NCBI GenBank assembly: GCA_020854815.1
Contig: JAHKLW010000005.1
Coordinates: forward strand, 7,422-71,421
Source: Methanofastidiosum sp.
GTDB taxonomy: Archaea; Methanobacteriota_B; Thermococci; Methanofastidiosales; Methanofastidiosaceae
Direction: 5' to 3'
Length of the DNA: 64,000 nt
This document shows, in pieces, positions 11,932 through 42,932 of the stretch. The position numbers were made by a program, and so were the translations under genes. Below the pieces are notes generated by a model, which was not told the origin of the DNA, did no database searches, and saw only the letters and a program-made list of their open reading frames with translations. Position 1 is the stretch's first letter; each line of letters begins with the position of its first letter.

Positions 11932-12141
11932 ATGATTGATATCATGGAATCAAAGATAAAAGATTTAACCATTGAAGAGTTCCGTCTGCTCTTATCGGAT
12001 ACTCTAAAAGAAGTAATGGAAGATTTGAAGGAGGACATGTTGGCTCTTTCAAGTCAGGATTATATTGATTCAATTGAAGAGTCGAGGAAAGATTACAAAG
12101 AAGGGAAATTTAAAAATCTAGAGGATATACTAAATGTATAA
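11932..12141 (+). CDS. Type II antitoxin (small acidic protein upstream of the RelE/ParE toxin)
   Basis: The protein is 69 aa and acidic. It overlaps the downstream toxin gene by 8 nt, the classical TA arrangement. Confidence 0.6.
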   Translation: MIDIMESKIKDLTIEEFRLLLSDTLKEVMEDLKEDMLALSSQDYIDSIEESRKDYKEGKFKNLEDILNV

Positions 12142-12388
12142 TGTCGTTATCCCCGACAGAGCCTCCAAGGATTTAGAGAAAATTGATAAAAAAACTCAGA
12201 AGATAATCCTTTTAAAAATAAAAGAATATTCCTCGAATCCTTTTAGATATTCAACTAGATTAAGTGATACTAGGATTGGAGATTATAGATTTAGAATTGG
12301 TAAGTACAGAGTCATTTTTGATATTGATGGGGATAATTTAGTAGTTTTGAGAATAGGCCATAGAAAGAATATTTATAAAAATATATAA
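12134..12388 (+). CDS. relE: RelE/ParE family type II toxin
   Basis: The protein is 84 aa. RIGDYRFRIGKYRVIFDIDGDNLVVLRIGHRKNIY is the typical RelE/ParE C-terminal pattern. Confidence 0.8.
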   Translation: MYNVVIPDRASKDLEKIDKKTQKIILLKIKEYSSNPFRYSTRLSDTRIGDYRFRIGKYRVIFDIDGDNLVVLRIGHRKNIYKNI

Positions 12389-12398
12389 TAAAAAACAA

Positions 12399-12472
12399 CG
12401 GACCAGGGGGGATTTGAACCCCCGACCTATAGCTTAGGAGGCTATCGCCATATCCACTAGGCCACTGGTCCC
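12399..12472 (-). tRNA. tRNA-Arg (CCT)
   Basis: The reverse complement reads GGGACCAGTGGCCTAGTGGATATGGCGATAGCCTCCTAAGCTATAGGTCGGGGGTTCAAATCCCCCCTGGTCCG. The anticodon stem is ATAGC/GCTAT and the loop is CTCCTAA. Confidence 0.9.
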
Positions 12473-12482
12473 AAATCGGATT

Positions 12483-14303
12483 TTATAACATTATATATAA
12501 GTTTTTACCATTCATAATGCCGTCTTCGATTTGCTCAGCGATTGGATTTTTGTTTGATATCTTGATTTTTCCAGACTTTGGAACATTAATCTCTTCAAGG
12601 TAATCATCCTCTAGGAATATTTTGACACTTTTTCGTGCAAATCTTTTTTCAACATTTATGAGAACATACTTTTCCCTGAAGTCAACATCCACTGGGATTC
12701 TGCCCTTTTTACCCTTCTCCTGAGTCTTTTCCATTGGTCTTACATCAATTGAAAATCCTATTGCATTCTCAAGTGCCCTTATGTTTTTTCCTTCCTTACC
12801 TATTATTGAGGGAATATCATCATTTTTAACATAAAGAGCAATCCTAGAATCTGATACTGCTTCTAGATCAAATTGTATCCCAAGTTCAGCGTTTAACTTT
12901 TCCTTTAGCTTTGATAGAGCTAATTTCTTCATAGGAGATGTTTCTTTTCTCCGGGCTTTAAGGGGCATCACGACGACCTGCTCCCCATATGTGTAAATCT
13001 CATAAAGCGGAGTCTTTGAGTAGAAATCCTTTATCTCAACTATCGGTCTTGCAAGGTCAGCTTCACTCATGCCGTGAGGAACTTTTACCAAAAATTCTAA
13101 TTCTAAGACCTGATTCAATTCTCCGTTTTTTATGAAGATAATAGTGTCAATGAGCTGCGGTATAATACCTAGCTCAATCCTTCCTATGAAACGCTGAATT
13201 GCATCGACAGGTTTTGTCGCATGGACAACGCCAACCATGCCCACACCTGCAAGCCTCATATCAGCATATATCTTGAAATCATTTGTGACCCTCATTTCAT
13301 CAAAGATTGTAAAATCTGGCCTTACTAAAAGTAGTATATCGCCGGTCTTTGCCATATCACCTTCTAGTGCAGTATACTGAGTTATCTCAGGCTGGACATT
13401 TAGGTCCCTTGGCTTTTCCATTGTCTTTACTATCTTTTCTAAAGATGCGTAGTACTCTGCTATGGCCTGGGCAAATGTGGACTTACCCATACCTGGTGCA
13501 CCTGCGATAAGAATTCCTTCTGCAGTTTCAAGCCTCTTCATGAGCTGCTCAGGCAGATTATAATCTTCCAAGCTAAGTTTTTTAACAGGTCTCACAGCAG
13601 TTATTTCAAATCTATCTGAAAATGGCGGTGAAGTAATTACTATCCTGTATTCTTGCAACTGGACAACACTCGCTCCTTTTTCATCAAGTTCGATAAAGCT
13701 ATCCCTTGTAGTTTTTGCTCTCTCTAAGATATCAAGAGAGATTTCCTTTAGCTCATCTTCGCTGTAAATCCTATCATACTTTTCTAAGACTATTGAGCCG
13801 GGCTTTCCTTTCTTTCTTGCTGGCATGATGCCATCTTTTAGGTGAACAGATAAGGTTTCTAAATCAAAGAAATCCTCAATCTTTAGTTTTACCTTTTTAT
13901 ATGGCTTTAGAAAAATTGACTGCACCCCTTTGGCCTCGGCAATATCTTTTTGGATTAGGTCGCCTGTTATTAGGGTGCCGCCTAAATCCATTGCGGCCTC
14001 CCTGATGATGGCGTCAATATCGCCTTTTTTAGCACCTGCAATCTCATACCTTGTTGGCCTCTTGCCGTAGTATTCCAAAGGTACGAATATCTCCTTTGAA
14101 ATATTGAATATTGCCTTTAACTCTGCGATGCCAGATATTCCAGAGGATTTCCCCTCGTTTGCTAGATGCTCAACCTCTGCAACTGTGGCTTCAGCTATGA
14201 CAATTCTTTCTAAATCCTTTACAAAATCAGCATCGCGCAAAAGAGCCTTGAATCTACCGTCAACTACAACGGATGTGTCCGGTACAGCAATCATATGAAT
14301 CAC
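12483..14303 (-). CDS. PIN domain + PilT/VirB11-type ATPase + KH domain protein (archaeal PINc/PilT-family ATPase)
   Basis: The N-terminus is PIN-like (VPDTSVVVDG). Walker A is GAPGMGKST and the C-terminal KH GXXG motif is IGKEGKNIRALE. Size is 606 aa. Confidence 0.8.
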   Translation of the reverse strand: MIHMIAVPDTSVVVDGRFKALLRDADFVKDLERIVIAEATVAEVEHLANEGKSSGISGIAELKAIFNISKEIFVPLEYYGKRPTRYEIAGAKKGDIDAIIREAAMDLGGTLITGDLIQKDIAEAKGVQSIFLKPYKKVKLKIEDFFDLETLSVHLKDGIMPARKKGKPGSIVLEKYDRIYSEDELKEISLDILERAKTTRDSFIELDEKGASVVQLQEYRIVITSPPFSDRFEITAVRPVKKLSLEDYNLPEQLMKRLETAEGILIAGAPGMGKSTFAQAIAEYYASLEKIVKTMEKPRDLNVQPEITQYTALEGDMAKTGDILLLVRPDFTIFDEMRVTNDFKIYADMRLAGVGMVGVVHATKPVDAIQRFIGRIELGIIPQLIDTIIFIKNGELNQVLELEFLVKVPHGMSEADLARPIVEIKDFYSKTPLYEIYTYGEQVVVMPLKARRKETSPMKKLALSKLKEKLNAELGIQFDLEAVSDSRIALYVKNDDIPSIIGKEGKNIRALENAIGFSIDVRPMEKTQEKGKKGRIPVDVDFREKYVLINVEKRFARKSVKIFLEDDYLEEINVPKSGKIKISNKNPIAEQIEDGIMNGKNLYIML

Positions 14304-14308
14304 AAGGG

Positions 14309-15052
14309 CTAGTAAATTTCTCCCTGTGGATATACCACTATGCCCTCTTTAGAGATGGAAAACGGATACTGCTTTATCTTATGATTTGTCTCCCTCATCT
14401 TCCTGATGAATATGCTCCTCTTGTACTCTGCCATCCTGGGCATGGCCTTTTCCCCTTCGACAAGGTGCATTGTGATAACTCCCCTAGTTATGAACTCTTC
14501 ATATCCAAATCGGGAATAACCGTGGCCATTAATAATCTCAGTTATCAGAATTGAAGTTGCCTTTGTCTCAGTTAAGACCCTTCCCATCATATAGATATCG
14601 TCTCGCATGTTTTCAGGTTCTTCAGAGAAGAAAAATGCTGGGAGGGAATCTATGACAATTCTTTTTGCATTAATATCCATAGCTATCTCATATAATTTTG
14701 AAAGAAGGGATTTTATGTCGACATCGCTTTTGACGTAAAAGTTTTCATCTGTGGGAACACCTACCCTTAAAGATGCAGCGTCGAGGATGACAATTTTTTT
14801 CTGATCTTCGTATTTTTTAAAATCCCATCCGAACTGGAGAGCTTCTCTTCTTAGCTCTTCAGGTTTTTCTTCAAACGTTACATAGATGCCTGCCTCTCCA
14901 AAATCCTTGGCACCAGAGTAGATATACTGCAGGGAAAATATAGTTTTTCCTGTTCCTGCCTCACCAGACAATAATATTGACGAGCTTTGAGGTAACCCCC
15001 CTCCAATTAGCTCATCGAGCCCTTTAATTCCTGTCTTTACTCTTTCATCCAT
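14309..15052 (-). CDS. KaiC/RadA-like RecA-superfamily ATPase (single domain, 247 aa)
   Basis: GIKGLDELIGGGLP is followed by Walker A GEAGTGKT and Walker B RIVIDSL. Confidence 0.85.
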   Translation of the reverse strand: MDERVKTGIKGLDELIGGGLPQSSSILLSGEAGTGKTIFSLQYIYSGAKDFGEAGIYVTFEEKPEELRREALQFGWDFKKYEDQKKIVILDAASLRVGVPTDENFYVKSDVDIKSLLSKLYEIAMDINAKRIVIDSLPAFFFSEEPENMRDDIYMMGRVLTETKATSILITEIINGHGYSRFGYEEFITRGVITMHLVEGEKAMPRMAEYKRSIFIRKMRETNHKIKQYPFSISKEGIVVYPQGEIY

Positions 15053-15060
15053 ATTCTCAC

Positions 15061-15354
15061 CTATATTCTTAACGTAACTAGGAAAAATGAAAGTATCATT
15101 ATGATAAGTCCTAATATAAATACACTAAACGATGTGTTAATAAATGCTTCCTTTCTTATATTTTCCTCTTTTAGTTTTGAAGATTTAAATGCGGTAATAA
15201 ATGATCCCATGAAGAGTATGCTTGATATTAATAAGAAAACAGATAACGATTCTTTGTACACATAATTTGATATGAGCGCATACTGTGCTAAAAATAATGA
15301 TGCTGCAAACATTATTATGGATGCATGAAGTATGCTTTGGGATGTTTCGTTCAT
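15061..15354 (-). CDS. Small polytopic membrane protein (97 aa, about 3 TM by eye)
   Basis: It has three hydrophobic stretches. Its start overlaps the upstream stop by 1 nt (TAATG). No family was recognised. Confidence 0.55.
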   Translation of the reverse strand: MNETSQSILHASIIMFAASLFLAQYALISNYVYKESLSVFLLISSILFMGSFITAFKSSKLKEENIRKEAFINTSFSVFILGLIIMILSFFLVTLRI

Positions 15355-15764
15355 TACCTCACCCCCACTATAAGGCCGTAAAGGTAGAAGATGTAACCTA
15401 AAACCCCTATTATCAGGTAAATGATGTAATGATTCTTATGGTCATTTTCTTCAAGATTATATTTAAACTGTAAAATGATATGAACTGTGTAGAGGAAAAT
15501 TGAGATTAATATACTTGATGACCTCGCAATCTCAGGGTATGACGCAGGAGAAAACTTCAATAGAGCATTTAAAATATCTGAAGAACTCAAGATAAATATG
15601 AACAATAAGAGGTACCCCATGATGCTAAAAGTTTCCCCCATGATGAAGTACATCGTCTTTGATTTGTAGTCGTTTGTGGTGTTATACAAAATGAATGTGA
15701 TAAGTTCTACTGTGAAAAATAGGAGAATGGCTGTTCCAATCCCTAAAAATAGTACATCTGCCAT
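15354..15764 (-). CDS. Small polytopic membrane protein (136 aa, about 4 TM by eye)
   Basis: It has four hydrophobic stretches and is packed inside the operon. No family was recognised. Confidence 0.55.
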   Translation of the reverse strand: MADVLFLGIGTAILLFFTVELITFILYNTTNDYKSKTMYFIMGETFSIMGYLLLFIFILSSSDILNALLKFSPASYPEIARSSSILISIFLYTVHIILQFKYNLEENDHKNHYIIYLIIGVLGYIFYLYGLIVGVR

Positions 15765-15772
15765 GGAATCCC

Positions 15773-16378
15773 TTATATTCTGAATCTATCAAATATTACA
15801 TTATTATTATTTATACGATACTTTATTCTTTTATAGTTTCCGCTATAAAGCTTGCCAAAATCAACATAAAAAACCTCTTCCCCCATTTCAACGGCCCTTT
15901 CCAAGAAGAGCGTAGCTTCGGCCAAATGCCTTATTGATACTTCAACTTCATCTTTGTGCATGCCCTTGTGTAAAAAGATTATTATCCGGGCATTTTTTTC
16001 CCTCCCCATTGCAAATAGCCTCTGGAGAAACCGGTAAACTGGAACAAGGCCTAGCGTTACTAATAAGGAAGAAATAGAGTCTATAATTACTGTCGTATCT
16101 TTTCCTGTTTCTTCCCTTGCCATGAAGATATTTCTTATGATTTCATCTAAATCGTATGCATAAGAGATGTGGTATTTCTCAGAGCTTTTGATCCCAAGCC
16201 TTTCGGTATAACAGTCAATTATGAATTTGGGCTTGAAGAGCTCTCTTATCTCTAGTGGGCTTTTGTCTATGCCCACATATATTAAATCGCCCTTGATTAA
16301 TTCTTTGCCAAAATACTCTTTTCCAGTTTCTGGCTCTCCTAGAAGAAGTATGTTGTTCTGTTCTAACTCTTTGAGCAT
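15773..16378 (-). CDS. KaiC/RecA-fold protein with degenerate P-loop (201 aa)
   Basis: LLLGEPETGKEYFG is a Walker A-like motif lacking the Ser/Thr after Lys. Walker B-like TVIIDSIS is present. The overall pattern resembles the 247-aa neighbour. Confidence 0.6.
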   Translation of the reverse strand: MLKELEQNNILLLGEPETGKEYFGKELIKGDLIYVGIDKSPLEIRELFKPKFIIDCYTERLGIKSSEKYHISYAYDLDEIIRNIFMAREETGKDTTVIIDSISSLLVTLGLVPVYRFLQRLFAMGREKNARIIIFLHKGMHKDEVEVSIRHLAEATLFLERAVEMGEEVFYVDFGKLYSGNYKRIKYRINNNNVIFDRFRI

Positions 16379-16806
16379 AGGGCGATCTCACCCCAAATTT
16401 TGTCTATTTCATTTATCGTTGCAACTTTTATGCCGGGAAGGTCAATCTTTGGTTTATCTTTACCAGCATATATTGCACAGAACTTTCCGATCTGCATGAA
16501 AGAATCCCTGACTTTGACAGCCATCAATATCCCTTCCATTTTTCTCAATCTTTCAAATAAATCCTCTGCCTTTTTTATAGTGATTGAGTCGATTGCATAA
16601 GTTTCAGGAATTATTTCAATGATATAGTAAGTTTCGCCAAGCTTTTTGTGATTTAGGGTTAATCTGTAATTTAGGACATTTCTCAGTTTTTTTAATCGGA
16701 AGTGAATTGTAGTGTCTGGGATGTTCGTGAGTTTTGAGATGTCAGTTATTGAGATTCTCGCATTTTCCTTCATGACATCTATAATCTTTTGATCTATATC
16801 TTTCAT
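16363..16806 (-). CDS. Lrp/AsnC-family transcriptional regulator
   Basis: The N-terminal HTH IDQKIIDVMKENARISITDISKLTNIPDTTIHFRLKKL is followed by an alpha/beta RAM-like C-terminal half. Confidence 0.75.
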   Translation of the reverse strand: MKDIDQKIIDVMKENARISITDISKLTNIPDTTIHFRLKKLRNVLNYRLTLNHKKLGETYYIIEIIPETYAIDSITIKKAEDLFERLRKMEGILMAVKVRDSFMQIGKFCAIYAGKDKPKIDLPGIKVATINEIDKIWGEIALCSKS

Positions 16807-16838
16807 GAAAAGTATTATTTCTGTTACTATTTAAATTT

Positions 16839-16905
16839 ATCGCAATTTAATTTGTTGTTATTGGAATTTAATTATTGGTAATTTTGATTATTGCGAATTT
16901 AACGT
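16839..16905. promoter_or_regulatory. Four direct copies of an AT(T/C)G(G/C)-AATTT motif in the divergent promoter region (candidate Lrp operator array)
   Basis: ATCGCAATTTAA starts at 16839, ATTGGAATTTAA at 16859, ATTGGTAATTTT at 16874 and ATTGCGAATTTA at 16890. Spacings are 20, 15 and 16 nt. Confidence 0.4.
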
Positions 16906-16976
16906 AGATTACCGAAACACTTAAAAACAATCCCAATCTATTTGTTATTGTCCATATAAAAATGGAGGATGATTAA

Positions 16977-17435
16977 ATGATGAAATTTTTTAGAAAACAC
17001 AGAAAGGCTGTTTCACCAGTTATTGCGGTCATGTTATTGGTCGCAGTAGCTGTTGCAGCCGTTGGAGCATACTTCATATGGTTTAGATCTTTCCAGACGC
17101 AAACTCAAGGTTCAGTTCAGCAGCAAGCTAGTGGAGCACTTGGAACAGGATTGCAAGTGGTAAGCTTTGCTAATGACTCTGCATACTACTATGTATCTCT
17201 TAGAAATTCTTCATCGGCGACTCTTGATGTTAAGGCTATTAAAAGAGGTACAGATGCTAATAAGACTGTAGATGATCAAGCCGGCATGCCTGTAAGACTA
17301 CTGCCTAATCAGACTGCTACAGTTTTATTTGTACCCTCAGCGCCAATTCCAAGTGGTAAAACAGATACCTTCACTGTAGACTTTAATTCTTCAACTAGTA
17401 CAGGTGTTTTAGTCCACACTTACACAGCTTCTTAA
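16977..17435 (+). CDS. Archaeal type IV pilin-like protein with class III signal peptide
   Basis: The N-terminus MMKFFRKHRKAVSPVIAVMLLVAVAVAAVGAYFIWF is the canonical archaeal prepilin/archaellin-like signal, with KAVSPVIA at the cleavage region. The protein is 152 aa and Ser/Thr/Asn-rich. The SD GGAGGATGA lies upstream. Confidence 0.85.
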   Translation: MMKFFRKHRKAVSPVIAVMLLVAVAVAAVGAYFIWFRSFQTQTQGSVQQQASGALGTGLQVVSFANDSAYYYVSLRNSSSATLDVKAIKRGTDANKTVDDQAGMPVRLLPNQTATVLFVPSAPIPSGKTDTFTVDFNSSTSTGVLVHTYTAS

Positions 17436-17529: not shown

Positions 17530-18336
17530 ATGATAGCCTACAAGATGAGGATTATTGACCTTGTCAATGGTAAGTTAAAAAATGACGATATGGGAGGAGT
17601 TATCCTTTCTACACCCTTTGGCGAATCCAAGGAAGCAAGAATACTTGGCACTATAATAGATTCATATAGAAACAATGAAAATACCTATGGCTCTGTAACA
17701 ATTGACGATGGAACTGCAACGACAAGATTAAAAGCATGGCAAGAAAAAATTGAGCTTCTTGACAAATTCAAAGTTGGGGAAATTGTCGATATAATCGGAC
17801 GAGTTGGAGAATTTCAGGACGAAATATACATCGTTCCAGACATAATAATCCCTGTCACGCCAAACTACTGGATCTATAGAGAACTAGAGCTCTCAAAAAG
17901 AATAAAAGAGCTAATGGAGAGAGGATTGTCATTTGAGTACAAAGAAGATAAAATAGATTCCTATACACCAGCTGCACCGGAAATCCCTCAAAAAGAAGAA
18001 ACATATGAAGAAGTCACTGAAGAGGTGCATATCTCTGAGGTAGAAGAAGCCTTGCAAGAAACAGAAATAGAATCTCTGATGGAAGAAGTTTCTGAGGAAA
18101 CTCTTACTAAAGACATGACAGAAGACAAAGGCGATATGTCGTTTTACGAAGATATCGATGAAGAAGAGATAAAGGAAAGTATATATAACCTTCTAAAGAC
18201 CGACCCCAGGATATCAAAATCAGAAATATCAAATGTTTTGAGTATCGATGAGCTTGATGTTGAGCTATCTATAAAAGACTTAATGGACGAAGGCCGAATA
18301 AAAACAAAGGAAGACGGGTTTGAGATAATTGAATGA
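17530..18336 (+). CDS. OB-fold protein with acidic linker and C-terminal winged-helix (RPA32/Stn1-like architecture)
   Basis: The OB-like segment is ARILGTIID...GSVTIDDGTATTRLKAW...GEIVDIIGRVGEFQDEIYIVPD. It is followed by a long Glu-rich linker and a wH-like C-terminus. Confidence 0.5.
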   Translation: MIAYKMRIIDLVNGKLKNDDMGGVILSTPFGESKEARILGTIIDSYRNNENTYGSVTIDDGTATTRLKAWQEKIELLDKFKVGEIVDIIGRVGEFQDEIYIVPDIIIPVTPNYWIYRELELSKRIKELMERGLSFEYKEDKIDSYTPAAPEIPQKEETYEEVTEEVHISEVEEALQETEIESLMEEVSEETLTKDMTEDKGDMSFYEDIDEEEIKESIYNLLKTDPRISKSEISNVLSIDELDVELSIKDLMDEGRIKTKEDGFEIIE

Positions 18337-38231: not shown

Positions 38232-40172
38232 ATGAGAAGAGGCCTAATACTACTTTCAATTATTTTAATCTCTATACTTTTTCCATTTGATGTGGCCTCT
38301 TCTTCAGTCCCAGAAGATGCTTTCTTTTTTGATGAAGATGCTGTGAAGTCTATGATAGTTGTTGGAGAAACAGCAACATCATCAGATGTCATCTCTGCTT
38401 CAAAGCTTGCATTTCTCATTGCCAATCACCACACTGAAAGAATTGAGAATACTATATATGAAGAGTACAAAGTTTCTTTAAAGAATGTGAATGCTAGCGA
38501 TATAATAAGAATCGATCCTGGTAACACCACAATAAATTCAATTAAGGTGGCCGATGGATTAAAATCGCTATGGTGGGATGACGGATATAAATATTCATCA
38601 TTTCTCTATCCCTATGGTGACGGAGATAAAGTATTCGATTATGATGAAACGCATGAAGAGATATTCATAAAGTTATCGGATATTGAGTCCCCTGATGATT
38701 ATTGTCTTGATTTTAATATATCTGACATAATATATAGGGTATCATTTATCCGTACACCCCTCCAAAGACAGGTATTTGCCGGTTGCAGCGGCCCTCTTTA
38801 TGATGTACCATATAATTCATATAAAATAAGATTATTTGAGAAAGAGTATCCAATAATAAATAATGGCGTATATCGCTCTAAAGATCAAAATATAAGTTAT
38901 TTTATTTATGGGATTCCTATTTATTCTCCAGATACCATATTCAAAGTAGGGGACACGAGAGTCTTTGGCTGGTACACTGTAACACTTCTAGACATACACA
39001 GCCCAACAACAGAAGAGACTTCTAAAGATGACAAGTTTAAGGTTAAAAGTGGTGGAAGCTTTTCGGGCGAGTACAAAGTTTACCTTAGAGTATCTGACTT
39101 CACAGGGAAAAGTGATGATTTCTTAATGGTGATGGATGCTAATAGTTCAAGGTGTTGCACCTGCGTTTCTCTATGCGATCCAAAAGGAGGATACGGCTCC
39201 TTTACAACTGTTCCAACAAGGCAATATGAGAATGACCCATATTTCATCTTTGATAGAGGTACACGAGTTATTGATGGGATTGAGGAAACTATATGGTCTA
39301 TCCCTGTTTTTTATATAGATGGAATAAAAGTCTTTGAAGGTGCCGACAATAGCTTGCTTGCAGCGTTTGATATTTTTTCTTTGAAGGACTATGGGGCTAT
39401 TGAAGAAACTTCTTGTTGTATGCCATTTGTTACATATCCAAACGACTATAATCTTAGCATCTCCAATCTTTTGGAGGATATTATTGCATTTGGAGTTGAT
39501 ATTAATCTTGATGGAAATCTATCTCCTGAAGAACAACAGATACCTGTATTTGAAACTCCTGGAGAAGAATGTAACGCTTCTATCAAATTACCCTTTCCTT
39601 CGCCAGTTTATATAAATCCTGGAAAAGATGGTATATTTGGAACATGCGATGATTATCTAGATATTAATCCCGCTAATCCAAGATTTAAGAAGTGTAATTA
39701 CGATACAATTGATGTAATTTTGTGTGATAAAATAGATCTCACATGCTGTGACCCGCAGATTGTATATGGCCCAAAGAACTATTTCAAGATAGATATACTT
39801 GATTCAAACTACAAGCAGAAGGACGGCGATGGTATAGAACTTGAGGTCAGCCAGAAAAAATCAAAATTATATTTATTCTACGACTCTACAGTTAAAATTG
39901 AGCCTGCTTCGCTTATAAAAAGAGACATAGATGTTACTGGCTCCGATAAGGCTATGAAGAATCTCATTTTAATTGGAAATGAAAACAGCAATCTCTTAAT
40001 AAAAGATTTGTATGACGCAGGTATTTCTAAAGTCGTATGGTCAAGGTCTTTTGGCCAGTGGGAATATCTAAGAAATGTCTTCTATGAAAACAGCGTTTTA
40101 ATCGTGGGCGGTAGAAACGGTGAGGCCACTAACAACGCTTTGGAAGACCTTATGAAATTATTGTTTGTTTGA
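38232..40172 (+). CDS. Large secreted Cys-rich protein with S-layer-protein-like termini
   Basis: It has a signal peptide. The N-terminal MIVVGETATSSDVISASKLAFLIA and C-terminal NLILIGNENSNLLIKDLYDAG resemble the conserved ends of Methanococcales/Thermococcales-type S-layer proteins, as I recall them. It contains many Cys clusters (CCTCVSLC, SCCMP, TCCDP). Confidence 0.45.
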   Translation: MRRGLILLSIILISILFPFDVASSSVPEDAFFFDEDAVKSMIVVGETATSSDVISASKLAFLIANHHTERIENTIYEEYKVSLKNVNASDIIRIDPGNTTINSIKVADGLKSLWWDDGYKYSSFLYPYGDGDKVFDYDETHEEIFIKLSDIESPDDYCLDFNISDIIYRVSFIRTPLQRQVFAGCSGPLYDVPYNSYKIRLFEKEYPIINNGVYRSKDQNISYFIYGIPIYSPDTIFKVGDTRVFGWYTVTLLDIHSPTTEETSKDDKFKVKSGGSFSGEYKVYLRVSDFTGKSDDFLMVMDANSSRCCTCVSLCDPKGGYGSFTTVPTRQYENDPYFIFDRGTRVIDGIEETIWSIPVFYIDGIKVFEGADNSLLAAFDIFSLKDYGAIEETSCCMPFVTYPNDYNLSISNLLEDIIAFGVDINLDGNLSPEEQQIPVFETPGEECNASIKLPFPSPVYINPGKDGIFGTCDDYLDINPANPRFKKCNYDTIDVILCDKIDLTCCDPQIVYGPKNYFKIDILDSNYKQKDGDGIELEVSQKKSKLYLFYDSTVKIEPASLIKRDIDVTGSDKAMKNLILIGNENSNLLIKDLYDAGISKVVWSRSFGQWEYLRNVFYENSVLIVGGRNGEATNNALEDLMKLLFV

Positions 40173-42932
40173 TTGCCAGAACATCTTTGTCCTAGCATAT
40201 ACTCTTTCAGCGGCAAGAATATCTTTTAAGAGATCTTCCTCATTTTTTCTATCCTTTGTTAGAATTCTTTTAGCTGTTCTTGGACCTATTCCAATCCCTG
40301 CTAGAACGATAATCGCCTTTTTCCCATAGGGGAGAATTAAATCTGCAGAATCTTTAATCTCCTTCAAGCTCTTCTTTTCTTCATCATCTATTTTTCCTTT
40401 GGCGCCTTTTCGGACTATTTCGAGGTCCTCCCTTCTCCTCAAAATTCCAATATACCGTGCACCGCATTTGGGGCATTTTGGATTATCCTCAAAGTTATTT
40501 ACAGAAAGGGTCGTCTTCCAGTTTCTGCAGTGAAGGCAAGCAAGTGTAACCCTTTTTTCAAGTAGTCTCTTCTTCAAATATTTTATAATCTCTTTATCAG
40601 GCCTTTTTGGATACAAAAGTTCAAATGATGAGCCTTCAAGAAGATATCTTGAAAAGGTTGATGGTTCTTCGTTTTTGCTTATAATAATATTTAGTTTCCC
40701 ATCTTTCAGATCTCGTATTAATTGCTTTACAGGTTCAATCTCGAGTTTATCGTGGTATAGCTCATTTAATGTTTCTTCATAAAGCGGGGTATTCTTATAG
40801 AGTTTTAGTATGTTCTTCATTAAATATTTCTCAGAGTTTGCTCTTATAACTCCAAATCTCTTTGCTATCTGGATCATCTTCCATTCAAATAAAGGAGTAT
40901 TTTTTAAGACAATGTCAAGGATAGGTATCACGTGGTCCTCATTTAGTTCAAGAAGTGTATTTCTCACTACGCCACCACCATCTTTGATCCCGGGAGGGAA
41001 TTTTATCATTATGTGATACGGGTCTGTCCTCATCCCTATTGACTCCCCAAATCTCTGTGCAAGAAGGGAGGTAATGACCCTACCCAGTGTATCGTTTGCT
41101 TTAGAGCCGTTAAAGATATGCAGGATGACAAACTCACCTATATCTTCGATGACTATTGAATTCTTAGAATAAGGGAAATATTTTGACTGCTCATCAAGCA
41201 AATCATTTAGAATTTCTTTTGTATCTGGATTTAATGGCAACTCATCTATTTTTGTTTTATTATCAAAAATTTCAAAAACATCTCTGGAAACAAACAATGG
41301 GACTGGTATGAGTTCACCTTCCCAAGAAGGAATTGCGCCAACAGATCTAGTCTCAGTGACTTCAATTTTTTCCTCTTCAATATTTAATACCTTCCAGGTT
41401 CTTCCCCGAACTATAAAATTACCGCCAACTTCAATATTCGAAACAATAAAGTTCTCATCGAGTACACCAAGAGATGAACCAGTTCCTACTTCAACAACCC
41501 TATACTGTTTCGTATCTGGTATCATTGATAGGTTTTCAAAATAATAAAACATTCCTTGCTTGGACCTTTTGTAAGTTATTCCGTTATTGATCCAAATCAG
41601 CCTTATGCTTTCTAAAAAGTAGAGAACTCTCCAAAATTCATCATAACTCAAATTTCTGTAAGGATAGGATTTTTTAAAGATAGAGTAAGCTTCTTCAATT
41701 GATACTTCGTTACTTTCCATGGAAAGGCCTATTATTTGGTGAGATAGAACATCAAGTGATTTTTCCGGTATTTGTGAGCTTTCAATCTTATAGTTCAATG
41801 CATTTTTTGCTATTACTGCAGATTCGCATATCTCTTCGTCACTTGTAAGTATTACTCCTTTAGAAACAAGATAAGTTTTGTGACCTGCCCTGCCAACTCT
41901 CTGCAAAAGCTTTGATACTTGTCTTGGGCTACCATACTGGATAACTAGATCAACGGCGCCGACATCTATCCCAAGTTCCATGCTTGAAGTACAGACTATT
42001 CCTTTTATTTGCCCATTCTTGAATCTACTTTCAACATCAATTCTAGTTTCTTTGGAGAGAGATGAATGGTGCACATCAATAAAATTCATTTCCATAAGGT
42101 TAAATCTTGAAGAAAGAGTCTCAGCCATTTGACGAGTATTAACAAAAAGAAGAATGCTTTTGTGAGCATCAATTAACTCCTTAATCCTTCGTATTGATGA
42201 TGCGACATAAGGCGATATTTTTAGATTTTCTGCAGTCATTATATCTTCTTCAAAGATTTCTGGGGTTTCAACTTCAATGTCAAACTCTTTTTTTATTTGA
42301 GATTGAATTATTTGAACTTCTCTTTCTTGGCCCACTAAAAATCTTGCAACTTCCTCCTTTGAGCCAACAGTTGCAGAAAGTCCAATCCTCTGGATTCTGC
42401 CGCTCTTTAGCCTTTCTAGCCTCTCAAGCGCCAGACTTAATTGAACCCCCCTTTTATCTTCTGCAATTTCATGGATTTCATCAACGACGACAGCCAAAAC
42501 AGATTTGAGATGTTCTCTCAACTTCTTACCAGTGAAGAGTGCTTGAAGTGTTTCTGGGGTAGTAATCAATATATCTGGAGGCTTCAGACTTTGCCTTCTC
42601 CTCTCACTTTGGACTGTGTCACCATGTCTTGCTTTGATTGTAATCCCCATCGCTTCGCCTATTTTTTCAAGCCTCAGAAGAAGATCTCTATTGAGGGCCC
42701 TTAGTGGAGCTATATAGATAATCTTTATTCCTTGGGCATTACTATCCTTGACAAGTCTTAGAAGAGGAAGAATGGCAGCTTCAGTTTTTCCTGAACCTGT
42801 TGGAGCCATCAATAATACATTTTTTCTTTTTAATATTTCTGGAATTGAGCTTTTCTGGATATCGGTAGGTGAAGTAAAATTAAACTCTTTCAAAACATTG
42901 AAAATGTCATCTCCTAAAAGCTCAAAACTCAT
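40158..42932 (-). CDS. lhr: Lhr-like superfamily 2 DEAH-box helicase with C-terminal zinc ribbon
   Basis: Helicase motifs are APTGSGKT, DEIH, SAT and QRVGRAGH. The C-terminus has CLHCRN...CPKCG and an HhH-like GIGIGPRTAKRIL. Size is 924 aa. Confidence 0.85.
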   Translation of the reverse strand: MSFELLGDDIFNVLKEFNFTSPTDIQKSSIPEILKRKNVLLMAPTGSGKTEAAILPLLRLVKDSNAQGIKIIYIAPLRALNRDLLLRLEKIGEAMGITIKARHGDTVQSERRRQSLKPPDILITTPETLQALFTGKKLREHLKSVLAVVVDEIHEIAEDKRGVQLSLALERLERLKSGRIQRIGLSATVGSKEEVARFLVGQEREVQIIQSQIKKEFDIEVETPEIFEEDIMTAENLKISPYVASSIRRIKELIDAHKSILLFVNTRQMAETLSSRFNLMEMNFIDVHHSSLSKETRIDVESRFKNGQIKGIVCTSSMELGIDVGAVDLVIQYGSPRQVSKLLQRVGRAGHKTYLVSKGVILTSDEEICESAVIAKNALNYKIESSQIPEKSLDVLSHQIIGLSMESNEVSIEEAYSIFKKSYPYRNLSYDEFWRVLYFLESIRLIWINNGITYKRSKQGMFYYFENLSMIPDTKQYRVVEVGTGSSLGVLDENFIVSNIEVGGNFIVRGRTWKVLNIEEEKIEVTETRSVGAIPSWEGELIPVPLFVSRDVFEIFDNKTKIDELPLNPDTKEILNDLLDEQSKYFPYSKNSIVIEDIGEFVILHIFNGSKANDTLGRVITSLLAQRFGESIGMRTDPYHIMIKFPPGIKDGGGVVRNTLLELNEDHVIPILDIVLKNTPLFEWKMIQIAKRFGVIRANSEKYLMKNILKLYKNTPLYEETLNELYHDKLEIEPVKQLIRDLKDGKLNIIISKNEEPSTFSRYLLEGSSFELLYPKRPDKEIIKYLKKRLLEKRVTLACLHCRNWKTTLSVNNFEDNPKCPKCGARYIGILRRREDLEIVRKGAKGKIDDEEKKSLKEIKDSADLILPYGKKAIIVLAGIGIGPRTAKRILTKDRKNEEDLLKDILAAERVYARTKMFWQSNKQ

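Follow-up and report, generated by a model that had tools for sequence, protein, structure and literature searches.

The DNA analysed here is a 64,000-nt stretch (the window) from Methanofastidiosum sp. (GenBank assembly GCA_020854815.1, contig JAHKLW010000005.1, positions 7,422 to 71,421 of the forward strand), and our subject is a cluster of six minus-strand genes within it, together with a pilin-like gene that faces away from them across an AT-rich spacer (Table 1). The predicted products of the cluster are, in order, a regulator of the Lrp/AsnC family (Lrp147), an inactivated KaiC-fold protein (dKaiC201), two small membrane proteins (TM136 and TM97), a single-domain KaiC-like ATPase (KaiC247) and a protein that by sequence is an orthologue of PINA, the archaeal Holliday-junction branch-migration ATPase. 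We read the locus, tentatively and with a probability of roughly 0.45, as a KaiC-centred regulatory operon that would act on its own expression and on that of the divergent pilin gene; PINA would be the co-transcribed last gene and possibly a partner regulated by KaiC. An earlier note on this DNA had proposed an uncharacterised membrane-associated machine; the cluster does not look like a new machine of that kind but like a regulatory module whose passenger or target is unusual. Our open reading frame (ORF) scan agreed with that note on all seven ORFs, their strands and their coordinates. The four short motifs that it quoted are all present (they are given with the proteins below), and its domain calls (an Lrp/AsnC helix-turn-helix [HTH], a degenerate and an intact KaiC, PIN plus PilT-class ATPase plus KH, and a class III signal peptide) were recovered in searches with hidden Markov models.

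Table 1. Positions of the genes and of the shared control region in the window.
Feature	Position	Strand	Basis and remark
Lrp147 (147 aa)	16806-16363	minus	ORF scan; first cistron
dKaiC201 (201 aa)	16378-15773	minus	ORF scan; predicted inactivated KaiC-fold
TM136 (136 aa)	15764-15354	minus	ORF scan; orphan membrane protein
TM97 (97 aa)	15354-15061	minus	ORF scan; orphan membrane protein
KaiC247 (247 aa)	15052-14309	minus	ORF scan; single-domain, apparently core-family KaiC-like ATPase
PINA orthologue by sequence (606-aa ORF)	14303-12483	minus	ORF scan; last cistron
Pilin-like protein (152 aa)	16977-17435	plus	ORF scan; divergent from six-gene cluster
Divergent control region (170 bp, AT-rich)	16807-16976	none	Between Lrp147 and pilin genes

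Lrp147 and dKaiC201 overlap by 16 nt, dKaiC201 and TM136 are 8 nt apart, TM136 and TM97 overlap by 1 nt, another 8 nt separate TM97 from KaiC247, and 5 nt lie between KaiC247 and a GTG codon at 14303. These distances had been given correctly in the earlier note, except that the 5-nt gap does not hold. The alignment with orthologues and the 603-aa length of database homologues point to an ATG at 14294, codon 4 of the longest ORF (M4), as the likely PINA start; the protein then has 603 aa and the gap between KaiC247 and PINA is 14 nt, not 5. Promoters were searched for with a script for B recognition element/TATA box (BRE/TATA) motifs; a sigma-70 scanner was not used since the organism is archaeal. 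On the minus strand, a consensus BRE/TATA, GCGATAAATTTAAATA, lies at ~16843-16828 and ends 21 nt before the Lrp147 ATG. As inspection of the sequence before this gene revealed no Shine-Dalgarno motif, the Lrp147 transcript looks leaderless. GGTGA-type Shine-Dalgarno motifs precede dKaiC201, TM97 and KaiC247. Taken together, the single consensus BRE/TATA before Lrp147, the Shine-Dalgarno sites at internal genes and gaps of at most 14 nt give the cluster an operon-like appearance suggestive of co-transcription. On the plus strand, a TATA-like element, CTTAAAAACA, is found ~50 nt upstream of the pilin ATG and is followed by a GGAGG Shine-Dalgarno motif. The G+C content of the spacer is low (0.28-0.31), and the region contains an inverted repeat (TCGCAAT at 16840-16846 and ATTGCGA at 16890-16896), one arm of which overlaps the BRE; this repeat is a candidate operator. 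An alignment of the control region across the genus shows invariant blocks TTGCGA, TTAAAT and TGTTTCGGT, and the BRE/TATA, the pilin TATA-like element, the Shine-Dalgarno sites and the inverted repeat are all conserved at this level.

The linkage is not confined to this genome. The full seven-gene layout, with the pilin on the opposite strand followed by Lrp, dKaiC, TM136, TM97, KaiC and PINA, is present in at least 10 Methanofastidiosum assemblies at 74-96% identity, and every close homologue of the window proteins is annotated as Candidatus Methanofastidiosum or Methanofastidiosa. It recurs in a second, deep clade represented by five contigs (L006, L007, L008, L018 and L019), in which identity to the window proteins is 54-57% for KaiC, 50-55% for PINA, 39-44% for dKaiC, 36-43% for TM136 and ~30% for TM97. 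This clade is as distant from Methanofastidiosum as Thermococcus is (PINA ~53% identical), and the flanks of its loci are wholly different, with thiolase, HMG-CoA reductase, SRP19 and AglB genes on one side and transglutaminase, NYN and Cas4 genes on the other. Its genes overlap by 8, 1 and 4 nt, the last being the KaiC stop/PINA start, a geometry typical of translational coupling. As both flanks have been replaced while order, orientation and spacing have been kept, selection appears to maintain the cluster. The earlier description of the six genes as a tight, conserved cluster behaving like one transcription unit is in line with the retention of this layout in two deeply separated clades.

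By its sequence, Lrp147 is a divergent transcription regulator of the Lrp/AsnC family. It contains an AsnC-type HTH (PF13404, E=1.2e-9, 38.3 bits against a cut-off of 27), the recognition helix of which bears the motif PDTTIHFRLKKL. The best solved relatives are PF0864 (2ia0; E=2e-6), which has the same recognition-helix motif, and PH1519, with LrpA also matched. Alignments to PH1519 and 7fby reach residues 99-106, and the C-terminal half of Lrp147 is conserved with KaiC-linked regulators of Asgard archaea. In that group, the orthologues of KaiC247 (40-47% identical) occur without PINA but are consistently preceded by an AsnC-type HTH protein. These proteins, encoded directly upstream of KaiC, are full-length homologues of Lrp147 (hhalign 99.1%, 132 columns), and they have in common with it the helix PDTTIHFRxKKL. 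We found such an orthologous regulator-KaiC pair in ~25 Asgard loci. Since it occurs across the Asgard archaea, the pair is, as far as sequence can tell, an old and widespread core. A two-gene module so widely distributed points to regulation or signalling rather than to the structural machine previously proposed. In Thermococci metagenome-assembled genomes (MAGs), the KaiC homologue sits in a KaiC-KaiC tandem.

The Asgard loci have further neighbours. In Hermod-, Thor- and Promethearchaeota, a small protein with three transmembrane (TM) helices is consistently encoded upstream of the Lrp-KaiC pair (L021-L033 and others); it carries the motifs RIYYTRLIF and GGHxKGLxKGLGT and has a weak EMC6 match (E=7e-4). 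Downstream, the opposite strand encodes a 5-6-TM protein and a 2-3-TM protein, and the 3-TM/Lrp/KaiC neighbourhood looks like conserved synteny. A pan-archaeal triad of small TM protein, Lrp and KaiC was considered and rejected, as hhalign gave a probability of only 1-2% between the Asgard 3-TM protein and TM136/TM97.

Few uncharacterised regulators of archaea are as abundant as the KaiC-like ATPases, and KaiC247 (Pfam PF06745, E=1e-72) is apparently an active, core-family KaiC, judging by its intact motifs: Walker A GEAGTGKT, a catalytic Glu pair in TFEE and Walker B RIVIDS. Its best solved relative is PH0186 (2zts; E=1e-68), followed by cyanobacterial/clock KaiC CI (~1e-55) and Sso2452 (1e-29). 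Against the ArlH model NF052589 it scores 46.5 bits (cut-off 215; dKaiC201 scores 14.5 bits), against the RadB model 20 bits (cut-off 172), against RadA models 22-31 bits (cut-offs 259-403) and against the circ_KaiC model 154.6 bits (cut-off 546). A circadian-clock KaiC (CI plus CII, ~500 aa) was excluded because KaiC247 is a single domain of 247 aa and falls below the circ_KaiC cut-off. A Pfam scan of the cluster proteins found no KaiB-like gene. KaiC247 adjoins PINA in every locus of the module, with either a gap of 5-14 nt or a 4-nt overlap, and appears to be the hub of the module.

A relative of KaiC247 occurs in other company in a Hydrothermarchaeaceae MAG (L069 6687-10180, plus strand), where genes for a KaiC (262 aa), an EVE-KaiC fusion (396 aa) and a PilB3-like T2SSE ATPase (482 aa) follow one another. 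The fusion protein is 43% identical to KaiC247, and its gene overlaps the start of the PilB-type ATPase gene (T2SSE E=2e-47) by 4 nt. Such fusions of an EVE (PUA-like) domain to KaiC are unusual; another is found in the JGI match P0048 (393 aa, PF01878 plus PF06745).

The second KaiC-fold protein, dKaiC201, is by its motifs a catalytically dead KaiC paralogue (inactivated KaiC, or iKaiC). The Walker A Ser/Thr is lost in both clades (GEPETGKE in the window, GxPGTGKR in the deep clade) and the catalytic EE pair has become DK or DI, while the Walker B hhhhDS is retained in both. The protein matches Pfam KaiC at E=9e-6, just under the cut-off. Outside Methanofastidiosum, where its relatives are at least 80% identical, dKaiC201 has relatives in the deep clade alone (39-44%). 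An AlphaFold2 model built on a shallow alignment was of moderate quality (predicted template modelling score 0.65, predicted local distance difference test 61), and its best structural matches were Sso2452 (top) and KaiC CI domains, with template modelling scores of ~0.5. The model confirms the fold family and nothing finer.

The 606-aa ORF had been regarded as an uncharacterised ATPase with odd RNA-type domains, but it belongs to a known family and has the features of an ordinary PINA orthologue. It scores 777.9 bits against NCBIfam PRK13764 (cut-off 340), with residues 3-604 of 606 covered, and its E value is 8e-121 against the SisPINA crystal structure (5f4h) and 1.5e-25 against the PIN domain of MJ1533 (3i8o). 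The score against the crenarchaeal equivalog NF053733 (HJMigATPsPINA), 469.8 bits, is below the cut-off of 800, as would be anticipated for a euryarchaeal orthologue. The Pfam matches are PIN, T2SSE and KH, which is the PIN plus ATPase plus KH architecture of SisPINA, and the P-loop is GAPGMGKST. Thermococcus, Pyrococcus and Palaeococcus have a single PINA of 602 aa, to which the protein is 52-56% identical over its full length. In an alignment with the Thermococcus/Pyrococcus orthologues, every canonical motif, catalytic and KH, is retained, and the module-linked PINA displays no sequence specialisation. There was no sign, among the best 120 PINA matches, of a second, unlinked copy in Methanofastidiosum. 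All four other genomes sampled (T. kodakarensis, a Thermococcaceae contig, another 'Methanofastidiosa archaeon' MAG and a fourth lineage) have an isolated PINA gene with no KaiC, Lrp or TM neighbour.

PINA is hexameric and has been reported from all sequenced archaea; its KH domain binds the helicase Hjm, and its known partners are the recombination proteins Hjc, Hjm and RFC (PMC6061704). The role documented for it is that of a soluble DNA helicase, and the biochemistry of branch migration and of contact with Hjc and Hjm is known only for SisPINA (PMC6061704). S. islandicus requires PINA for viability, but S. acidocaldarius does not (PMC6061704, PMC8775617); in the latter, the knockout is cold-sensitive but not mitomycin C-sensitive, and pina adjoins hjc (PMC8775617). 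Thus, while the T. kodakarensis copy is alone and the S. acidocaldarius copy lies beside hjc, the window copy ends a KaiC/Lrp operon. Neither of these two studies addresses how PINA is regulated (PMC6061704, PMC8775617).

With PINA as its last gene, the cluster could be read as a recombination/repair operon, in which KaiC247 and dKaiC201 would act with PINA on Holliday junctions or stalled forks as mediators in the manner of RadA paralogues such as the aRadC/Sso2452-type KaiC-like proteins; Lrp147 would merely be the regulator of the operon, and the pilin and membrane genes would be bystanders. KaiC and PINA are indeed the sole invariant, tightly coupled pair in all module loci, the partners of PINA are recombination proteins (PMC6061704), and the proximity of pina to hjc in S. 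acidocaldarius means that PINA can join functional gene pairs (PMC8775617). The best structural match of dKaiC201, Sso2452 (2w0m), is a KaiC-like RadA paralogue of the Sulfolobales with which it shares the RecA/KaiC fold, and adjacency to PINA makes for a possible recombination context. However, that match rests at a template modelling score of ~0.5 on the modest model described above, dKaiC201 lacks catalytic residues, unlike paralogues of the Sso2452 type, and PINA is the sole DNA-repair partner in the operon. Furthermore, KaiC247 is far nearer to PH0186 and clock KaiC CI than to Sso2452 and far under the RadA and RadB cut-offs, and its orthologues pair with an Lrp-type regulator and, in the one case of L069, with a PilB-type ATPase, not with repair genes. 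The conservation of both membrane proteins and of the pilin in two clades would also be left unexplained. We therefore consider a repair operon unlikely. A defence system, suggested by a PIN domain together with a STAND-like P-loop, was likewise considered and dropped, as PADLOC gave only local P-loop/HTH matches (E>=8e-5, ~20 bits).

For TM136 and TM97, no family was matched in Pfam, NCBIfam or PADLOC. A hydropathy scan of near-identical orthologues (L038) predicts four TM helices in TM136 and three in TM97, the same numbers as estimated previously, and TM136 has conserved polar residues within its helices (E20, E/D44, R81 and H95). TM136 was searched exhaustively with phmmer against 1.84 billion representative proteins, and no relatives turned up beyond the two clades; those found were P0253 (86% identical) and P0256 (40% identical). 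Orthologues of TM97 occur only in Methanofastidiosum (74-93% identical) and in the deep clade (~30%). A paralogous relationship between the two proteins was entertained and abandoned (hhalign probability 27%, not significant). Both genes are deleted in an APG12-type lineage known from two independent assemblies (L004 and L005/L015), which keeps the pilin, both KaiCs and PINA. The deletion corresponds to 15092-15772 of the window and leaves a ~30-nt remnant of the TM97 3' end, and the loss is a secondary deletion. The converse idea, that the TM genes were inserted, was dropped because the deep clade has both genes and the variant keeps the TM97 remnant. Since this lineage does without TM136 and TM97, the membrane proteins are dispensable. 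They are orphans restricted to two clades, and not the fixed core for which the earlier note had taken them.

A second natural variant is found in the APG09 MAG (L016 7100-7300, on a 133-kb contig), where a clean 1,133-bp deletion equivalent to 15850-16982 of the window removes the start codon and promoter of the pilin gene, all of the control region, the whole of Lrp and residues 1 to ~176 of dKaiC. As a result, the pilin coding sequence minus its start codon is fused to the last 28 codons of dKaiC. The deletion may exist in the population or may be an artefact of assembly. Among all module loci and variants, the only pair never separated is KaiC-PINA.

Such variants, which drop sub-blocks independently, are consistent with the possibility that the gene order is an accident or a loose 'uber-operon', in which the pilin, the five-gene KaiC module and PINA (with the tRNA-Arg described below) are neighbours by common ancestry and functionally unconnected. 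The separate existence of the parts agrees with this: the four other lineages sampled have PINA away from KaiC, the Asgard Lrp-KaiC pair exists without PINA or pilin, and the module-linked PINA carries no mark of specialisation. A neighbour-joining tree of PINA is also compatible with a common ancestor of the two clades, although it is a near-polytomy that does not settle whether they are sisters, and for that reason it was discarded as a means of deciding between a single origin and a transfer of the linkage. Against an accident, both flanks have been replaced between clades of ~53% PINA identity, and yet seven genes keep their order, orientation and near-zero spacing. In addition, the deep-clade KaiC stop and PINA start overlap in the manner typical of translational coupling, and another 'Methanofastidiosa' MAG has PINA alone, so the arrangement is not simply class-wide frozen synteny. 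On balance, mere inherited neighbourhood seems improbable to us.

The 152-aa protein encoded across the spacer is, on sequence evidence, a stand-alone archaeal type IV pilin-like protein. It scores 23.7 bits against TIGR02537, the archaellin/type IV pilin N-terminal model (cut-off 20), matches Pfam Pilin_N at E=2.7e-4 and has a class III signal peptide (..HRKA/VSPVIAVMLL..). The stretch KKA/VSPVIAVMLLVAVAVAAVGAYFIW is identical across the two clades, as are the N-terminal 27 residues, whereas the C-terminal domain is hypervariable. The PDB relatives of the protein, all weak matches, are archaeal type IV pilus (T4P)-type filament subunits alone. In both clades the gene stays divergent beside Lrp. 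Neither a PilB-type ATPase nor a PilC/TadC platform was found among the cluster proteins or 20 other large ORFs scanned in the window (no T2SSE/T2SSF). In the deep clade (L006 2379-5129 and L007 2377-5145, both minus strand), the pilin gene is followed by an STT3/AglB oligosaccharyltransferase gene and then by a second small gene, which in L006 has a weak tblastn match to the window pilin (26% identity). This suggests a pilin-glycosylation unit opposite the KaiC operon.

A pilin beside membrane proteins, KaiC-like proteins and a hexameric ATPase is what gave rise to the comparison with the archaellum core in the earlier note. In a membrane machine of that kind, TM136 and TM97 would be the platform, KaiC247 and dKaiC201 an ArlH-like ring and PINA the motor, and the machine might assemble or retract the pilin or move nucleic acid across the membrane in the manner of Ced. 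The ATPase of PINA does fall within the FtsK-HerA 'pumping' superfamily and is sister to PilT and to secretion ATPases (PMC4858521); in L069 the gene of a close KaiC247 homologue is coupled to that of a true PilB-type ATPase; and both clades conserve the membrane genes and the pilin. The part of the analogy that stands is a KaiC-like protein encoded beside a PilT/VirB11-class hexameric ATPase. The part that does not is the platform and the identity of the components: the locus has no ArlJ/TadC-like protein, and KaiC247 is far from the ArlH cut-off (46.5 against 215 bits). KaiC247 is not ArlH and the ATPase is PINA, not ArlI; also missing by comparison with the archaellum are the archaellins, ArlF, ArlG, ArlC, ArlD and ArlE. 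A scan of the cluster proteins agreed with the earlier observation that no arl/pil assembly genes are adjacent, and no TadC/ArlJ (T2SSF) model matched TM136 or TM97, which thus have no detectable relatives among known platform proteins. Moreover, PINA appears to be a standard housekeeping orthologue with unchanged motifs and a documented soluble DNA-helicase role (PMC6061704), the APG12-type lineage has lost the TM genes yet has the pilin, both KaiCs and PINA, and MJ1533-like genes were never seen in secretion contexts in the survey by Makarova et al. (2016; PMC4858521). A membrane machine is consequently very unlikely, and the locus is not the categorically new machine of the first reading.

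For a KaiC-centred regulatory operon, the following course of events can be envisaged. A single leaderless transcript would run from the BRE/TATA before Lrp147 through PINA, with dKaiC201, TM97 and KaiC247 translated from GGTGA-type Shine-Dalgarno sites. KaiC247, probably with the inactive dKaiC201, would act as a nucleotide-dependent switch, which in most lineages TM136 and TM97 might tether to the membrane or supply with membrane-derived input. The state of the switch would modulate Lrp147, and this regulator would bind the shared 170-bp region, perhaps at the candidate operator TCGCAAT/ATTGCGA that overlaps its own BRE, and so determine how strongly its own operon and the divergent pilin gene are expressed. 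More speculatively, because KaiC247 always lies directly upstream of PINA, PINA would be produced along with the switch, and KaiC247 might bind the PINA hexamer and regulate it directly, as ArlH does with ArlI.

Several observations weigh against this interpretation. The RAM effector domain (PF01037) was not reported by Pfam for Lrp147 at E<=0.1. Outside the two clades the Lrp-KaiC pair is not beside a pilin, and PINA has no KaiC neighbour in the four genomes sampled there, so that the pilin link and the PINA link could both be clade-specific historical accidents. The unity of the transcript is also in question. L016 keeps TM136, TM97, KaiC and PINA as intact ORFs. Should its deletion prove genuine, these genes must be expressed from some other promoter, and the cluster would not be a single transcript in the strict sense. 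Another TTTAWATA motif is present on the operon strand, inside TM136 at 15467.

The closest characterised analogue, in our view, is in Haloferax volcanii, where the Lrp/AsnC-like CsmR (hvo_1209) and the KaiC-like CirA (hvo_1212) flank and co-regulate the archaellin genes arlA1 and arlA2 (PMC13286277). Pilin genes are also affected in mutants of the CsmR/CirA axis, and the KaiC-like protein has been proposed to modulate the transcription factor post-translationally (PMC13286277). Similarly, the archaeal T4P survey describes a strong association of several KaiC arCOGs with T4P loci, where they are putative regulators (PMC4858521). The likeness between the Haloferax and Methanofastidiosum loci, an Lrp/AsnC-class regulator and a KaiC-like ATPase around a filament-subunit gene, is one of architecture and function only. 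The Haloferax locus has archaellins and another gene order, and it is without an inactivated KaiC, small membrane proteins and PINA. In 2017, Methanofastidiosa genomes were barely available. In that year, Makarova, Galperin and Koonin reportedly described active single-domain KaiCs paired with an iKaiC domain and an HTH output protein. The iKaiC concept is confirmed in a paper that cites Makarova, Galperin and Koonin (2017). In comparison with such KaiC hub modules, the window combines an Lrp with the PDTTIHFR motif, an iKaiC, two orphan TM proteins, KaiC and PINA.

The pairing of KaiC247 with PINA has a second parallel, in the archaellum. ArlH (FlaH) binds ArlI (FlaI) in a nucleotide-dependent manner (PMC4858521), and in both cases a single-domain KaiC-like protein is encoded beside a hexameric ATPase of the PilT/VirB11/FtsK-HerA class. 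By this analogy, and by that of the KaiC-PilB pair in L069, KaiC247 may regulate the PINA hexamer. The proposition that KaiC controls a PilT-class hexameric ATPase as ArlH controls ArlI is a testable hypothesis, and the locus offers a handle both on the regulation of PINA and on the outputs of KaiC. A stronger form, in which KaiC247 as an ArlH-like partner of PINA would, together with dKaiC201 and TM136/TM97, bring PINA to the membrane at the pilin filament, strikes us as highly improbable. If it were true, it could mean DNA import or export through or along the pilus for recombination, or pilus retraction. PINA would then have a second, envelope-associated role and become a candidate for the missing PilT-like function of archaea, which lack PilT-family ATPases according to the 2016 survey (PMC4858521).

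The arrangement is confined to two uncultured clades, and every functional link in it is inferred. To our knowledge, there is no earlier genomic context in which an MJ1533/PINA-family gene lies beside a pilin and membrane genes. The occurrence of one here contrasts with the 'never seen' of the 2016 survey (PMC4858521). The natural deletion variants, one without the TM genes and the other without Lrp and dKaiC, provide ready comparisons in an organism that has not been cultured.

Other features lie near the cluster. A tRNA-Arg(CCT) gene (12399-12471, minus strand) begins 11 nt past the PINA stop on the same strand. Six Methanofastidiosum loci have it beside PINA and the deep clade does not; it may be co-transcribed with the operon or have its own promoter inside the PINA 3' end. 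Just past this tRNA gene are two overlapping small ORFs (69 aa and 84 aa; 11932-12388, plus strand). The content of this slot differs by strain, with 65+65 aa in L001, 84+104 aa in L004 and 55+104 aa in L005, and the L004 gene has a weak ParE_toxin Pfam match; the slot looks like a variable tRNA-adjacent toxin-antitoxin islet. Downstream of the pilin gene, a 268-aa protein (17530-18336, plus strand) is encoded that has an N-terminal oligonucleotide/oligosaccharide-binding (OB) fold (PF01336), an acidic linker and a C-terminal winged helix, a layout that we take to resemble RPA32-type single-stranded-DNA-binding subunits. Its gene is syntenic throughout the genus and absent from the deep-clade locus, and its closeness to PINA may be a coincidence. 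Finally, a 924-aa Lhr-type helicase (DEAD, Helicase_C, WH_Lhr and DEAD_assoc; 40158-42932, minus strand), encoded ~26 kb from PINA, is another DNA-repair helicase in the window and is unlinked to the cluster.

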